Assembly: GCA_016176685.1 (NCBI GenBank)
Contig: JACOWS010000002.1
Span: 30,608-94,607, forward strand
Source of the DNA: Patescibacteria group bacterium
Lineage (GTDB): Bacteria > Patescibacteriota > Minisyncoccia > Phycocordibacterales > SBAW01
Direction: 5' to 3'
Length of the DNA stretch: 64,000 nucleotides
This document shows, one piece after another, positions 8,140 to 63,407 of the stretch (position 1 is the stretch's first letter; the number at the start of each line of letters is the position of its first letter). The notes beneath the pieces are model-generated. The model saw only the letters and a program-made list of their open reading frames with translations, ran no database searches and was not told the DNA's origin. A program made the position numbers and the translations under genes.

Positions 8140-8472
8140 ATGGGTAGCAAACACGCCGCCAGCAAGATATATTCTAATATTCTGAAGAATAACAGAATAA
8201 AGTCTGCTAGGACGCCAAAGCAATTAGAACGACACTTTAAGGGAGTCGCCAATCATCGTCGGATCGAGATTTTACTGCTTGTGGCAAAACGAGAGGGAAT
8301 CACTACGGAAGCGATTTCAACTACGCTTGACTGCAATTTTAAAACAATTTCTTCTCACACTCAACGCTTGATACAAGCTGGTTTACTAGAGAAAAAGTAC
8401 CTTGCACAAAGCGTACTCCATACGCTTTCGCCTCATGGAAAAATGGTGCACACCTTTATTCAATCATTCTGA
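8140..8472 (+). CDS. ArsR/SmtB family transcriptional regulator
   Basis: 'LERHFKGVANHRRIEILLLV...ISSHTQRLIQAGLL' matches the ArsR HTH layout. Confidence 0.7.
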   Translation: MGSKHAASKIYSNILKNNRIKSARTPKQLERHFKGVANHRRIEILLLVAKREGITTEAISTTLDCNFKTISSHTQRLIQAGLLEKKYLAQSVLHTLSPHGKMVHTFIQSF

Positions 8473-8492
8473 TATTCTGAAGAATATCAGAA
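8467..8492. promoter_or_regulatory. Perfect 11-4-11 palindrome TTCTGATATTC-TGAA-GAATATCAGAA (candidate operator) overlapping the ArsR stop and upstream of gltX; an imperfect copy lies at 8172-8197
   Basis: Read directly from the sequence. The second copy has two mismatches and lies within codons 11-19 of the ArsR ORF; a half-site is near 8523. Confidence 0.5.
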
Positions 8493-8541
8493 TACAAGCA
8501 GCGAAGAGGTCAAGGGTCGGAAATTCTGATATAGTTTTTAC

Positions 8542-57965: not shown

Positions 57966-58250
57966 TCCGCGGTAGCTCAATGGTAGAGCAGCTCCCTGTC
58001 AGCAGGCAGCCTCCCACAGGAATGTGGGTTGCAAACGAGGTGAATTCGGGGAAATCCTAAGCTTTGTCGAAGGACAATCCCGAGCCAAGCTCCAGATTTT
58101 GGAGAAGGTGTAGAGACTATCCCGCAAGGGAGTACTCTCAAAAAGAGGAAGCCCCTCGCATCCAGAACGGATGATGATATAGTCCACGCCCGCAGTAATG
58201 TGGGGAAACGTGTAAGGAGTTGGTTGTAGGTTCGAGTCCTACCCGCGGAG
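57966..58250 (+). tRNA. tRNA-Asn (GUU) interrupted by a 213-nt group I intron in the anticodon loop (mature length 72 nt)
   Basis: Exons UCCGCGGUAGCUCAAUGGUAGAGCAGCUCCCUGU / UAAGGAGUUGGUUGUAGGUUCGAGUCCUACCCGCGGAG fold as tRNA-Asn with loop CUGUUAA and G73. The 5' splice site is after U, the intron ends with G, and a GCAGG internal guide-like segment follows the splice site. Confidence 0.7.
58000..58212 (+). ncRNA. Group I self-splicing intron (subgroup IC3-like) within tRNA-Asn
   Basis: Contains blocks nearly identical to the Azoarcus/cyanobacterial tRNA introns: AATTCGGGGAAATCCTAAGC, GAGCCAAGC and GAAGGTGTAGAGACTA (J8/7-P7). No ORF. Confidence 0.7.
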
Positions 58251-58482
58251 CCCAGTCCCCCGACCCCCGTCTGGGTAACCTCTCGGTTTCCCAACATCTC
58301 GCTACGCTCAATCCTTCCTCCACGAGGGACTAGGCGTCTTTTGCTCTGCAAAAGCCGAGGGTAGGACGAGAACGAGGGGTGGGTCGGAGGGGAAACTATA
58401 GTGTCCCCTCCGTGGAGGAAATTATTCAAAACCGTGGGTTTTGAAAGCGCAGTCTCGTTATAGCGGGACGAGCAGTGAGTAC

Positions 58483-58501
58483 TCCTACCCGCGGAGCCCA
58501 G
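58483..58501 (+). repeat. 19-bp exact direct repeat of the tRNA-Asn 3' end (TCCTACCCGCGGAGCCCAG; first copy 58237-58255); att-like
   Basis: Read directly from the sequence. This is the classical signature of site-specific integration at a tRNA 3' end. Confidence 0.6.
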
Positions 58502-58537
58502 ATAACCCTTTGCGACGGCAAAGGGTTATCTGGGCTC
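58494..58537 (+). repeat. 20-bp perfect hairpin with GACG loop (gagcccagataaccctttgc-gacg-gcaaagggttatctgggctc); left arm overlaps the att-like repeat
   Basis: Read directly from the sequence. Confidence 0.6.
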
Positions 58538-60665: not shown

Positions 60666-61202
60666 TTGATGGGAGGAGGGTCTGGTATTATTACAACAAT
60701 GACAAACCTATTTATACTCGCCGGTATACTACTATTTATCGCCATTGCGGTGGCGTTATTTTCAGGAAAGTTCGAAAATATAAACGGGGAAAAGGCGCAG
60801 TATCAATACAGAAGGAAAAACTTCTTTCTTACTCGAGCAGAGCATGAATGCTATGACGCTTTCGTCGAGGCGGTTGGTGCGGAGTATCGCATTTTCGCAC
60901 AGGTGCATCTACCTACTCTAGTTGACCACACAATTCGAGGGCAGGATTGGCGTGCCGCTCTGGCACACATAAACCGGAAGTCTGTTGATTTCGTGCTTTG
61001 TGACAAAGCGTATCTCTCACCAAAGCTAGCTATCGAGCTGGATGATAAATCACACGAGCGTCCGGATCGGCAGGAACGTGATCGTGAAGTGGAGCGTATC
61101 CTGCGTGAAGCCGGTGTGCCACTCTTGAGACTGGAAAATCACGGCAATTTTAATCCAAGCGAATTAGCTCAACAAATCAAAGAAACCCTTAACCCCAAAT
61201 AA
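60666..61202 (+). CDS. DUF2726 (NERD/restriction-endonuclease-like) domain membrane-anchored protein
   Basis: N-terminal TM helix; 'RKSVDFVLCDKAYLSPKLAIELDDKSHERPDRQERDREVERILREAGVPLLRL' DUF2726 core. Confidence 0.65.
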   Translation: MMGGGSGIITTMTNLFILAGILLFIAIAVALFSGKFENINGEKAQYQYRRKNFFLTRAEHECYDAFVEAVGAEYRIFAQVHLPTLVDHTIRGQDWRAALAHINRKSVDFVLCDKAYLSPKLAIELDDKSHERPDRQERDREVERILREAGVPLLRLENHGNFNPSELAQQIKETLNPK

Positions 61203-61248
61203 CATCCCTATAAACTGGAGTATGTAAGGATATTGAAAAAACAAATAT

Positions 61249-61749
61249 ATGCGTATAAATAATTTTTTCAAATCAGTAATTGCCATTGGCGTTTCGCTGG
61301 GAGCAGGAGTGATCGGCTCATTCTTTACCACACCGGCAGTTCAATCCAGTTGGTATCTGGAACTTATTAAACCGGCTCTCAATCCTCCGACGTGGATGTT
61401 CGGTCCGGTCTGGACGACACTATTTGCGCTTATGGGCATTTCTCTTTTTCTTGTCTGGAAACAACATCCTTACATACTTGAGAATGTAAGGATGTTACGA
61501 GTGTGGAGATGGGCGATCGCGCTATTTTTTATTCAGCTGGTACTCAACACCCTTTGGTCGATTATCTTTTTTGGTCTGCATAGCCCCGGCGGTGCGCTTG
61601 TTGAGATCGTGTTCCTTTGGCTTGCTATCCTCGCCACAATCATTGCATTTTATAAAATCTCCCGGCCGGCCGCGTGGCTCTTGGTGCCGTATATCCTTTG
61701 GGTCAGCTTTGCCGCTTATTTAAACTATGCCATTTGGTCGCTGAATTAA
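61249..61749 (+). CDS. tspO: TspO/MBR family tryptophan-rich sensory protein with an in-frame palindromic insertion
   Basis: 'FGPVWTTLFALMGIS', 'WSIIFFGL' and 'YILWVSFAAYLNYAIWSLN'. The loop 'KQHPYILENVRMLR' is encoded by the hairpin element. Confidence 0.8.
   Translation: MRINNFFKSVIAIGVSLGAGVIGSFFTTPAVQSSWYLELIKPALNPPTWMFGPVWTTLFALMGISLFLVWKQHPYILENVRMLRVWRWAIALFFIQLVLNTLWSIIFFGLHSPGGALVEIVFLWLAILATIIAFYKISRPAAWLLVPYILWVSFAAYLNYAIWSLN
61459..61496 (+). repeat. Family 3 hairpin element, copy 1 (AAACAACATCCTTACA-T-ACTTGAGAA-TGTAAGGATGTT), inside tspO
   Basis: 13-bp stem aacatccttacat/aatgtaaggatgtt. The second copy at 62618-62655 is identical except for one nucleotide. Confidence 0.8.
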
Positions 61750-62149
61750 ATCCAATTAAGCAAACAGACTTCGGTATAATTTCTTAACATCGTTCGAGTT
61801 AATCAAATCGTTCCAAAGGTTCAAATTTGGTCAAACCGGTGGGTAGTGGTGGCAACTGGTGATAGTGTGATGTACCCTAGGCACAAATCTCTCCACAGGG
61901 GCAAATAGCTGGCAAATCGGGGTGCATTTACCAGTAATTCACTATCTTAAACGGCGAGATATTGCCGGGAATCTGCCAAATGGCGGTTCGGAATGCATGA
62001 AGCGCGCGGAGCTCGTAAAAGTCGTTATTTTAATAGGGCCATTTTGAGTACCCGCGGATAAGACTCGAACTCTTGACTTGTTTATATATCTAATATATAT
62101 TACCTACAGATAATCTTTTCAGTCAATTCATTTCATAGAGGAGCTAGCA

Positions 62150-62428
62150 ATGCCGACCACAGACGATATCAAAAAATTCTGCGAAAGCATCGACTTCGAT
62201 TTATTGAAAAAGGCGAGGCGGAAAGAGTCTCTGACACCCGGCGAGCGCATCAAGGTACTTGCCGCACTCGCGTCGCCGACTCCATATATTAACGGTGGCA
62301 AGGTAGATGTGATGCGCAACCCCATCTTCGATCTTTCTTCAGTCGAAATTGCAAATATGTCTCGCGATAGAGGTTTCGCTGCAGCAGGCTACACGCCCGC
62401 AGCAATTGACTACATCCTACATCACTGA
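62150..62428 (+). CDS. Hypothetical protein (92 aa)
   Basis: Intact ORF followed by a hairpin plus T-tract (62450-62500). Confidence 0.4.
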   Translation: MPTTDDIKKFCESIDFDLLKKARRKESLTPGERIKVLAALASPTPYINGGKVDVMRNPIFDLSSVEIANMSRDRGFAAAGYTPAAIDYILHH

Positions 62429-62617
62429 AATGCCCGCCCAACAAACCGCACCGTCCACAACGCGAACCCGTTGGAGGACGGTTTCGCTTTTTACGCCAGC
62501 AAACAGGTTCGAACTTCGTAGGGCAGGCAGGGCAACTTTATTCAATCATGCGAGTTGTAAAGGAATATTGACTAAAAATCCAATTATAAACGATGGATAG
62601 AAAGGCATCGACCCCAT

Positions 62618-62655
62618 AAACAACATCCTTACAAACTTGAGAATGTAAGGATGTT
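62618..62655 (+). repeat. Family 3 hairpin element, copy 2 (intergenic, between convergent genes)
   Basis: caacatccttaca-aacttgagaa-tgtaaggatgttg. Confidence 0.8.
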
Positions 62656-62690
62656 GTGTGTTTGGAAATTGGCGATTGTTTCCCTGGAAT

Positions 62691-63407
62691 TTAGCGAGTA
62701 CTGACTAGCTTTTGGTACAGGCCGCCAAAGTATGAGGATTTTTGCCATCTGCGGCCGGCCATTTGTGCCGGTATAACATCTGCCAGTTCCCTGCCCCATA
62801 GGTCGACCGCGTAGGGCTCGAGTCTGGCGAGAAAAAGGTAAATTAAAAAACGCACCGGGTGCCATTTGGCCGGCTGTGCGTAGTCGACTATCACCAACTT
62901 GCCTCCTGGTTTTAGCACGCGCAGAGCCTCGCTCACGGATTTTTCTCTATATGCCTGCGGCTCTTCGTGCAGCAAAAAAAATAGCAGTACCCTGTCGTAG
63001 CTCTGGTCGGGCAGAGCGAGGGCCGTAGCGTCCATAAGGAGCGTCTGCGCATGCATCTCGGGCGTCATTTTCCTGCGCAGATTGTCTAGCTGGACCTCTA
63101 GTATGTCTATAACATCGAGTGAACCGCCGTTTTTTGCGGCGCGTGCCGCCAGGCGGGGCGAGAGGTCTCCATAACAGCACGACATTTGCAGGGTGCGCCC
63201 GGCCAGATCGTCGCCAAACTCGTCGAGCACGGCATTGCGTAGTGTTACGTAGTTGCCAAAAAGGATGAAGTTGATAAGCCACTGGCGCTCAAAAAAACGT
63301 ACTGCAGAGGGGCGCACATACGCCCACCAGTAAGTCTCCTCAAGATAGTCTGGTATTGGTGGGGCTATCTTGTGGGACATAGTTATAAAAAAAATACCCA
63401 GATACAC
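62691..63407 (-). CDS. Class I SAM-dependent methyltransferase-like protein (Methyltransf_11/RquA-like)
   Basis: 'PDYLEETYWWAYVRPSAVRFFERQWLINFILFGNY...LDVIDILE...LKPGGKLVIVDY'. Confidence 0.6.
   Translation of the reverse strand: MYLGIFFITMSHKIAPPIPDYLEETYWWAYVRPSAVRFFERQWLINFILFGNYVTLRNAVLDEFGDDLAGRTLQMSCCYGDLSPRLAARAAKNGGSLDVIDILEVQLDNLRRKMTPEMHAQTLLMDATALALPDQSYDRVLLFFLLHEEPQAYREKSVSEALRVLKPGGKLVIVDYAQPAKWHPVRFLIYLFLARLEPYAVDLWGRELADVIPAQMAGRRWQKSSYFGGLYQKLVSTR

Follow-up and report, generated by a model that had tools for sequence, protein, structure and literature searches.

A palindrome family of Candidate Phyla Radiation genomes, the small winged-helix gene to which it is linked, and its copy inside tspO

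The current work concerns a palindrome present in a stretch of 64,000 nucleotides (referred to as “the window”) of contig JACOWS010000002.1 of a Patescibacteria group bacterium, where one copy lies in frame in tspO, a degenerate copy precedes this gene and a further copy is intergenic. To our knowledge, gene regulation in the Candidate Phyla Radiation (CPR; Patescibacteria) is almost unstudied. The genes and palindromes concerned are as follows, positions being those of the window.

60666..61202, + strand: DUF2726 gene (Pfam, 1.6e-29), ending with a stop codon within the copy 0 flank.
61197..61235, + strand: copy 0, a degenerate palindrome AAATAACATCCCTATAAACTGGAGTATGTAAGGATATTG with centre CTGGAG, which provides the TAA stop of the DUF2726 open reading frame (ORF) and is located 14 nt 5' of the tspO ATG.
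61249..61749, + strand: tspO, 166 aa, TspO/MBR family (Pfam TspO_MBR, 3.1e-48), the host of copy 1; 100% identical to an NCBI Patescibacteria protein encoded on a contig of 159,787 bp.
61459..61496, + strand: copy 1, the 38-mer AAACAACATCCTTACATACTTGAGAATGTAAGGATGTT, in frame in tspO; the palindrome proper occupies 61463-61496.
62618..62655, + strand: copy 2, the 38-mer with A at base 17 and 14-bp arms, between convergent ORFs.
62656..62678, + strand: the tspO-derived tail of copy 2, GTGTGTTTGGAAATTGGCGATTG, which would read ..CVWKLAI..

A preliminary description of this region had reported copies 1 and 2 as a 38-nt palindrome occurring twice with a difference of one nucleotide, the first copy being in frame in tspO and the second intergenic between convergent genes, and all three statements hold: the sole difference is found at base 17 (T at 61475, A at 62634), the ORFs flanking copy 2 are convergent (62150..62428 on the + strand and 62691..63407 on the - strand), and a degenerate pattern of the 38-mer finds two exact matches in the window (61459-61496 and 62618-62655) and none in 100 dinucleotide-preserving shuffles. 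In the tspO frame copy 1 is read as the peptide KQHPYILENVRML, located in the loop that joins hydrophobic helices 2 and 3. What the preliminary description did not contain is copy 0, with 12 of 16 arm positions paired and its centre ≈263 bp from that of copy 1, a likeness of copies 1 and 2 that extends ≈21-23 nt 3' of the 38-mer (59 nt, 88%), and a related pair of palindromes at 8170-8199 and 8466-8493.

The distribution of the palindrome was determined by a scan of one genome per species with the pattern ACATCCTTACA-N(4-20)-TGTAAGGATGT, in which perfect 11-nt arms were demanded; loci used for comparison, retrieved by genome and metagenome scans, are designated by L-numbers. The core ACATCCTTACA-N10-TGTAAGGATGT is found in at least 120 loci, with 127 copies among the matches listed (the set to which the consensus, neighbour and clustering results below refer), nearly all of them in metagenome-assembled genomes (MAGs) of the CPR. 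These MAGs are of Parcubacteria, Saccharibacteria and other CPR groups, several with 3-5 matches; the taxon names are those of the record titles, and the labels ‘Gammaproteobacteria’, ‘Planctomycetales’, ‘Omnitrophota’ and ‘Nanoarchaeota’ carried by some matching MAGs are unverified and may reflect binning. The consensus plan is ACATCCTTACA WWCTnnAGWW TGTAAGGATGT, in which the two central bases are free and which runs ≈4-5 nt further out on either side, while the departures from symmetry that are themselves conserved are A.A and C.A/A.G mismatches. The 38-mer is a member of a palindrome family of many CPR lineages and is not private to the window genome; the palindromic element family that had been proposed is thereby real, and elsewhere its members also lie in frame in unrelated genes, its supposed restriction to one genome being what has to be given up. 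A full-text literature search found no description of the sequence, of the peptide or of CPR palindromic elements, and a protein search with concatenated palindrome peptides returned 446 word-sharing candidates, none at E ≤ 10. From a viral collection one contig was retrieved, this being the contig of metagenome locus L122, which carries the closest relative of the tspO module of the window. The corresponding viral-collection entry (L121, IMG/VR UViG_3300025323_000435) is 40,750 bp long and listed as viral, and its TspO is 88% identical to that of the window.

Clustering of the ORFs located beside palindrome copies yields one dominant cluster, a protein of ≈100 aa with the motifs ..KTAKQMERHLKGMANHYRIEILLLI..GANEKTIGEHTRRL..SPYGKTFVRFLKSFQ, which is present at 24 loci. 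Palindromes often lie both 5' and 3' of its gene, the downstream one being in contact with the stop codon; in seven of seven further lineages (the window, L202, L203, L205, L207, L208 and L209) the gene is bracketed by the lineage's own variant of the palindrome. The corresponding features of the window, distant from tspO, are given below.

8140..8472, + strand: the window regulator gene, encoding an ArsR/SmtB-like winged helix with recognition region LDCNFKTISSHTQRL; 54-59% identity by tblastn to regulators linked to the 38-mer.
8170..8199, no strand: the 5' palindrome of the regulator gene, a sister variant, TATTCTAATATTCTGAAGAATAACAGAATA, with an identical sequence at the syntenic L202 site.
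8466..8493, no strand: the 3' palindrome of the regulator gene, ATTCTGATATTCTGAAGAATATCAGAAT, perfect and overlapping the TGA stop.

Both palindromes of the window regulator have ATTCT-type arms and differ in this from the 38-mer. The NCBI annotation gives a 91-aa form of the protein, with a start just 3' of the 5' palindrome, and synteny with the window over murG - regulator - gltX is seen in L202, a contig of Adlerbacteria. An AlphaFold2 model of the protein (predicted local distance difference test score, pLDDT, of 93.9) adopts a winged-helix fold, the top Foldseek matches of which are HlyU, CzrA, SmtB and CadC (template modelling scores of 0.64-0.74), MarR also being among the best structural matches, while at the level of sequence the matches to ArsR, MarR and helix-turn-helix families of Pfam and NCBIfam (HTH_5, MarR, NF033788) are weak and mostly below curated cut-offs. 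The family is small, 215 of 1.84 billion representatives being matched at E ≤ 1e-10. Neither an HUH motif nor a catalytic domain was found in the partner protein, for which Pfam and NCBIfam return winged-helix families only and the model is a plain winged helix.

The upstream palindrome also carries the -35 box of the promoter of this gene. In 18 of 34 distinct regulator genes a -10-like hexamer TAnnnT is found 15-18 nt (16 nt in 14 of them) 3' of a palindrome centre reading TTGAGA, the commonest form being TTGAGA-16-TATAAT-6-ATG; in this form, with TTGAGA as the -35 box, the promoter spacer coincides with the right arm of the palindrome, and the regulator mRNA is, judging from this arrangement, probably leaderless. 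In addition, the recognition region could be read in 46 distinct regulator genes and sorts perfectly with the class of the palindrome arms. Regulators with N[EPGKQSA]KT[IL]G are paired with ..CCTTACAAACT|nn|AGTTTGTAAGG.. arms or close variants of these (the CCTTACA class, to which the tspO sites of the window belong), and those with N[FL]KTI[SA] are paired with ..ATTCT|nn|AGAAT.. arms, with no exception among the regulator genes for which a palindrome was detected. This co-variation is the main argument for a protein that reads the palindrome, and two free central bases are what a dimer site without contacts at its centre would show. A different origin of the centre was considered in the type IIG restriction enzymes BpuEI, BpmI and AcuI, whose sites are CTTGAG, CTGGAG and CTGAAG, respectively, and which cut 16/14 nt away, close to the edge of the element; this link was set aside, given that the central bases vary freely and that it found no other support.

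From these observations it is probable, if some way from assured, that the 38-mer represents one copy of the cognate site, an operator-type palindrome, of an ArsR/SmtB-like winged-helix protein of ≈95 aa that is specific to Patescibacteria, and our best reading is that this palindrome has also dispersed. The site consists of two arms of ≈15 bp around a CTnnAG centre, and in relatives the conserved module has the order: palindrome (with the TTGAGA -35 box, the right arm as spacer, TATAAT, 6 nt and the ATG), regulator gene, palindrome at or over the stop codon, tspO. The regulator may bind as a dimer or as two dimers and would then repress its own promoter by occlusion, tspO being controlled through the site upstream of it; in one TspO clade a third palindrome is part of the module, in frame in the loop between transmembrane helices 2 and 3, where it might act as an auxiliary operator or as a roadblock.

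Considering that a palindrome in transcribed DNA is also a potential hairpin, the same sequences can be read at the level of RNA, for instance with a role in termination, transcript stabilisation, RNase III processing or translational pausing, palindromy then being kept for the structure of the transcript. Copies 1 and 2 do fold strongly (-17.0 kcal/mol, z = -5.4, and -19.4 kcal/mol, z = -6.4, respectively; the fold of copy 0, with z = -0.3, is no better than those of shuffles), one copy is always found at the regulator stop codon and the arms co-vary. We nevertheless hold an RNA function to be improbable, as the hairpins are not followed by a U-tract, no terminator was called at any copy and no relevant Rfam family was found at the gathering threshold or at E ≤ 1; moreover, the conserved asymmetries mentioned above are not G.U wobbles, the centre doubles as a -35 box at a fixed spacing from the -10 box, both orientations relative to genes occur, and the arms change class in step with the recognition region of a DNA-binding protein.

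The second recurrent partner of the palindrome is tspO. In a metagenome scan with the window TspO as query (80 loci), the regulator gene is located directly 5' of tspO, with a palindrome in the spacer of ≈50 nt, in at least nine distinct loci; in L124 the upstream and tspO-internal copies are of one variant, and in L203, where tspO is 2.5 kb from the regulator gene, the tspO copy has the same arm variant as the regulator sites. Among 409 kb of sequence chosen for tspO or the regulator gene, 36 palindromes are found, all but about three of which are at the flanks of the regulator gene or at tspO. The regulator-palindrome-tspO module is conserved, and tspO is a recurrent partner.

The internal copy of tspO had been described as an insertion of roughly 13 aa, with the suggestion that orthologues be compared. 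An extra loop is indeed present, although the figure is imprecise, the difference depending on the reference: 6 aa more than in mouse TSPO and 11 aa more than in Rhodobacter TspO, both with solved structures, and, from whole-protein lengths, ≈7 aa more than in homologues of the KKGLDRRDVKIAL type and ≈2 aa more than in those of the SSYAK type. Among the 120 closest homologues, at least 59 carry the palindrome peptide in the same loop and in the same frame (17 of the HPY type and 35 of the HS[N/D] type), while the other 61, which lack it, have KKGLDRRDVKIAL (13), SSYAK.. (20) or other loops (28). The window tspO copy is therefore inherited and not a recent insertion, and a loop shared by orthologues is what the preliminary description had itself named as evidence against its reading. 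Variants internal to tspO are still perfect or near-perfect palindromes (for example AACATTCTAACATTCTGCAGAATGTTAGAATGTT in L135 and CAACATTCCGACATTCTGCAGAATGTCGGAATGTTG in L125), both arms changing together even when the amino acids change, N to D and R to G, as in HSNILQNVRM versus HSDILQNVGM. Synonymous variation is suppressed at this site: at third codon positions the entropy amounts to 0.44 bits within the 13 palindrome codons and to 1.12 bits elsewhere in tspO. Of 153 sliding windows, that of the palindrome codons is the fifth lowest, and the minimum of the gene is located one codon upstream.

In L162 (2234), L164 (1058) and L030 this TspO loop is occupied by palindromes unrelated to the 38-mer. 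At least three other palindrome families are shared across CPR genomes, namely TCACCCCGTTAGAG..CTCTAACGGGGTGA, ACCCCCACACCAAA..TTTGGTGTGGGGGT and GGATTCCCGC..GCGGGAATGACA (in L009, L023, L050, L063, L071, L078, L097 and others), and two of these are found in frame in the TspO loop of other lineages, as KKGLDRKDV[HPVRDSKNSNGV]KIAL and KKGLDRRDV[NPHTKGFGVGV]KIAL, which marks this loop as a palindrome hotspot.

The remaining two copies of the window are accounted for by comparison with related loci. Copy 0 is orthologous to the palindrome of the regulator-tspO spacer, its centre CTGGAG being that of L122, L128, L098 and L030, and the DUF2726 gene sits where the closest relatives have the winged-helix regulator gene. 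The segment 60666-61248 is a mosaic: the 3' end of the DUF2726 gene matches L156 (1885-2052), a palindrome-free DUF2726-tspO pair, up to ..CCCAAAT, and from AACATCC.. on the window matches L122 (1852-2052), which has the regulator-palindrome-tspO order, the breakpoint being the exact left edge of copy 0. The window DUF2726 protein is five codons shorter than that of L156, its stop codon being provided by the flank of the palindrome. A parallel junction is found in L075, where the regulator-palindrome unit is fused to the 3' half of tspO.

Over 61 nt, copy 2 and its tail have 92% identity with the tspO-internal site of L122. The 3' flank of copy 2 matches tspO (of the window, L122 and L128) at 15-17 of 21 bases, with no more than chance similarity past +24 nt or 5' of the palindrome. 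With its tspO-derived flank copy 2 is thus a tspO fragment and not an independent insertion; on the evidence of these alignments, it represents a relic, 61 nt long, of the interior of a tspO gene, cut at the left edge of the palindrome. A longer tspO pseudogene at this position was rejected, gapped local alignment of the flank being at chance and the tail of 21-23 nt emerging in the in-register comparison only. The independence of the two 38-mers is consequently unsupported, and the possibility raised in the preliminary description that they belong to a larger duplicated segment is borne out in part, to the extent of the short tspO flank. That same shared flank is what could be said for a local segmental duplication, or chance similarity, within the window genome as the whole explanation of the palindrome, an explanation that we regard as very improbable indeed, in view of the absence of matches in shuffles, of the 120 or more loci in many genomes and of the recurrence of the same tspO position in dozens of homologues. 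As all three copies of the window are in positions that are orthologous to, or derived from, those of other CPR genomes, the proposed activity of the element in this genome is unsupported. Returning to the operator-type reading, the window would represent a rearranged module, in which copy 0 would be a decaying tspO-upstream site fused to a DUF2726 gene in the usual place of the regulator gene, copy 1 the inherited intragenic site and copy 2 the relic of another tspO; over evolutionary time the palindromes would have spread elsewhere as well, including in frame into unrelated genes.

Such spread is seen in other genomes. In-frame host genes elsewhere always read HPY[KI]L.[NF]VRM at the palindrome, and comparison with solved structures gives a clean 13-aa insertion in PurL (versus 3viu), ≈16 extra loop residues in phosphoenolpyruvate (PEP) synthase (versus 8a8e) and a net change of +3 aa in TsaC; a family 2 glycosyltransferase (GT2) with an in-frame palindrome was likewise checked against a solved structure, an HsdS subunit by sequence inspection only, and two homologous membrane proteins carry the palindrome at different loops with net length changes of -2 and +3. 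For the ATTCT-type variant a filled/empty pair is available, L081 containing ≈32 nt that are missing from the orthologous site of L063 (77% identical); for the copies of the window no such pair was found. Taken together with the near-confinement to two genes in the 409 kb mentioned above, the coding insertions and the filled/empty pair indicate that dispersal is real but sparse.

These findings bear on a purely selfish miniature palindromic element, comparable to the Rickettsia palindromic elements (RPEs) or to miniature inverted-repeat transposable elements (MITEs), for which the winged-helix gene would be a mobilising or maintenance partner, as is the transposase associated with repetitive extragenic palindromic sequences (REPs; the REP-associated tyrosine transposase, RAYT), or a frequent landing site, with no regulatory function. 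In its favour are the in-frame copies in unrelated genes with their constant HPY..VRM frame and their different loops in two homologous membrane proteins, the clean insertion in PurL, the filled/empty pair, the several copies per genome, the unrelated palindromes of the same TspO loop (L162, L164) and the other conserved CPR families, the rearrangement junctions at palindrome edges (copy 0, copy 2, L075) and the neighbours of the copies, which form 133 clusters of which 114 are singletons. Against it, no recurrent transposase or recombinase and no parent insertion sequence was found among these neighbours, to which that examination applied and not to whole genomes, the winged-helix gene being the sole neighbour that recurs; target-site duplications of 3 bp or more are not in excess (123 distinct copies, offsets 0-6, lengths 2-8), 2-bp direct repeats at the boundaries showing a weak excess (17 observed, 9 expected); the partner is a plain winged helix without catalytic domain; the window copies are at inherited and not at new positions; the net change in length is near zero in several hosts (TsaC and the two membrane proteins); and the fixed -35/-10 geometry and the match of recognition helix with arm class point to DNA binding. 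We therefore rate a purely selfish element as unlikely, yet as the strongest competitor among the separate explanations, and a genome-specific MITE is unsupported, the family being present in many CPR lineages, free of target-site duplications and neighbouring transposases, and tied to a winged-helix gene and its promoter.

The operator-type reading has its own difficulties. Binding, repression and a role of the intragenic copy, and with these every functional step of the operator model, are steps that we infer. Copies inside PurL, PEP synthase, TsaC and others are hard to explain as a regulon, the neighbours of the copies are, as shown above, extremely diverse, and for one ArsR-type dimer a perfect palindrome of 30-42 bp is a long site. 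The operator model leaves unexplained the insertions into coding sequence, the filled/empty pair and the rearrangement junctions at the edges of palindromes, all of which fit a repeat that is selfish or recombinogenic. The compensatory changes in tspO, and likewise its low synonymous variation at the site, could be imitated by a homogenisation of copies through gene conversion. A consensus promoter scan found no usable -10 box downstream of copies 0, 1 and 2, so promoter activity of the three window copies is unsupported. Finally, no CCTTACA-class regulator is present in the 64-kb window: its sole regulator (8140..8472) is ATTCT-type while the tspO sites are CCTTACA-type, so that no cognate regulator is seen there, and L126 has the reverse mismatch. 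In L043 and L081, palindromes of the CCTTACA type occur alongside a regulator of the NFKTIS type that has ATTCT-type palindromes on either side, which means that one genome can hold both classes.

The operator and the selfish-repeat readings are compatible. A combination of the two can be formulated in which a transcription factor site acts as a mobile element: a palindrome of 32-42 bp with half a promoter, co-evolving with and bracketing its own winged-helix gene, would spread across the CPR without a transposase, both into intergenic regions and in frame into loops, the protein being its mobiliser or its silencer and its edges serving as recombination junctions by which cassettes such as tspO are shuffled. 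This we put forward as a speculation, a little less likely even than the purely selfish element.

Each known system is matched by the palindrome family in part and none in full. Autorepressors of the ArsR/SmtB family (SmtB, CzrA, CadC, HlyU) have 12-2-12 inverted-repeat operators. With these the CPR pair shares an inverted repeat with a 2-bp centre over the regulator's own promoter and, according to the model, a small alpha-alpha-alpha-beta-beta-alpha winged helix of ≈95 aa for which they are the best structural matches; in contrast, the sequence matches are mostly below curated cut-offs, the CPR site is longer (15-2-15, with up to 21 pairs), a second site is always at or over the stop codon, and sites also occur in frame in genes and dispersed. 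Intragenic auxiliary operators, lacO2 in lacZ and galOI in galE, present a similar layout, in which a promoter-proximal site is combined with a second one a few hundred bp downstream in coding sequence (≈263 bp in the window), whereas the CPR intragenic site is a block of 13 codons missing from some homologues and not overlaid on ancestral codons.

As regards repeats, RPEs were reportedly described by Ogata et al. in 2000 as palindromic elements in frame inside unrelated protein-coding genes of Rickettsia. They are ≈100-150 bp long and confined to Rickettsia, and we know of no cognate binding-protein gene for them. The CPR palindromes resemble them in adding to or replacing a loop peptide without breaking the gene, and differ in being 32-42 bp long, in extending across CPR lineages and in having a promoter -35 box and a co-varying winged-helix gene. 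RAYT is an HUH/Y1 transposase, and REPs are extragenic, GC-rich and marked by GTAG or CGTC tags. Short palindromes on both sides of one partner gene, with co-evolving protein and repeat variants, are common to REP/RAYT and to the CPR family, while the CPR partner is devoid of an HUH motif or catalytic domain and the CPR copy numbers appear far lower. With MITEs and Correia-type elements there is in common that small repeats are able to bring promoter elements to genes and that presence/absence polymorphism occurs; unlike these, the CPR family has no terminal inverted repeats distinct from the body, no target-site duplication and no parent insertion sequence. In L205 (1440-2123) and L206 (1518-2123), ≈8 kb from the regulator gene, there is a gene with a weak match to Pfam Y1_Tnp (IS200/RAYT-like).

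If the operator-type reading is correct, the module offers a concrete and testable CPR circuit, consisting of a small winged-helix protein, a probable operator, a near-consensus promoter that would be leaderless and tspO as a conserved target. The tspO copy further represents a case of constraint at the level of DNA over that of protein, a palindrome being kept inside the gene of a membrane protein through compensatory changes that alter the protein. Should the dispersal be real in the sense proposed, regulatory binding sites would be tied to selfish palindromic repeats, which bears on the origin and spread of RPE-like in-frame palindromes. Peptides of the HPY[KI]LE[NF]VRM type in CPR proteins are accordingly to be read as footprints of a DNA element and not as protein motifs.

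Several further features lie near the tspO region of the window. Another CPR palindrome family is represented by a filled/empty comparison, in which GGAATGCATGAAGCGCGCGGAGC at 61990-62012 is uninterrupted and L132:3404 and L097:3278 carry ACCCCCACACCAAAATTTGGTGTGGGGGT at ..GTGA|..|GAAGCG, with a possible duplication of 2-3 nt at the insertion. A tRNA interrupted by a group I intron is located at 57967-58255 on the + strand (Rfam RF00028 at 57986..58205, 56.7 bits; no ARAGORN call); its 3' end, TCCTACCCGCGGAGCCCAG, is repeated at 58483-58501 and is there followed by a perfect 20-bp hairpin (58483-58537), an inverted piece resembling a tRNA 3' end is found at 62052-62070 on the - strand, and the GC content of ≈55% drops to 46-50% past 60 kb. 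The tRNA repeats and the drop in GC content suggest integration or rearrangement at the tRNA. Just 3' of tspO, a block of ≈270 nt (61756-62023) contains no ORF of 40 aa or more and has internal hairpins, and Rfam yields nothing for it at E ≤ 1. Counterparts with 74-86% identity are present in five to six other CPR loci (L151, L157, L005, L177, L184, L132), and the block may represent either a non-coding RNA not described so far or one end of a mobile element.

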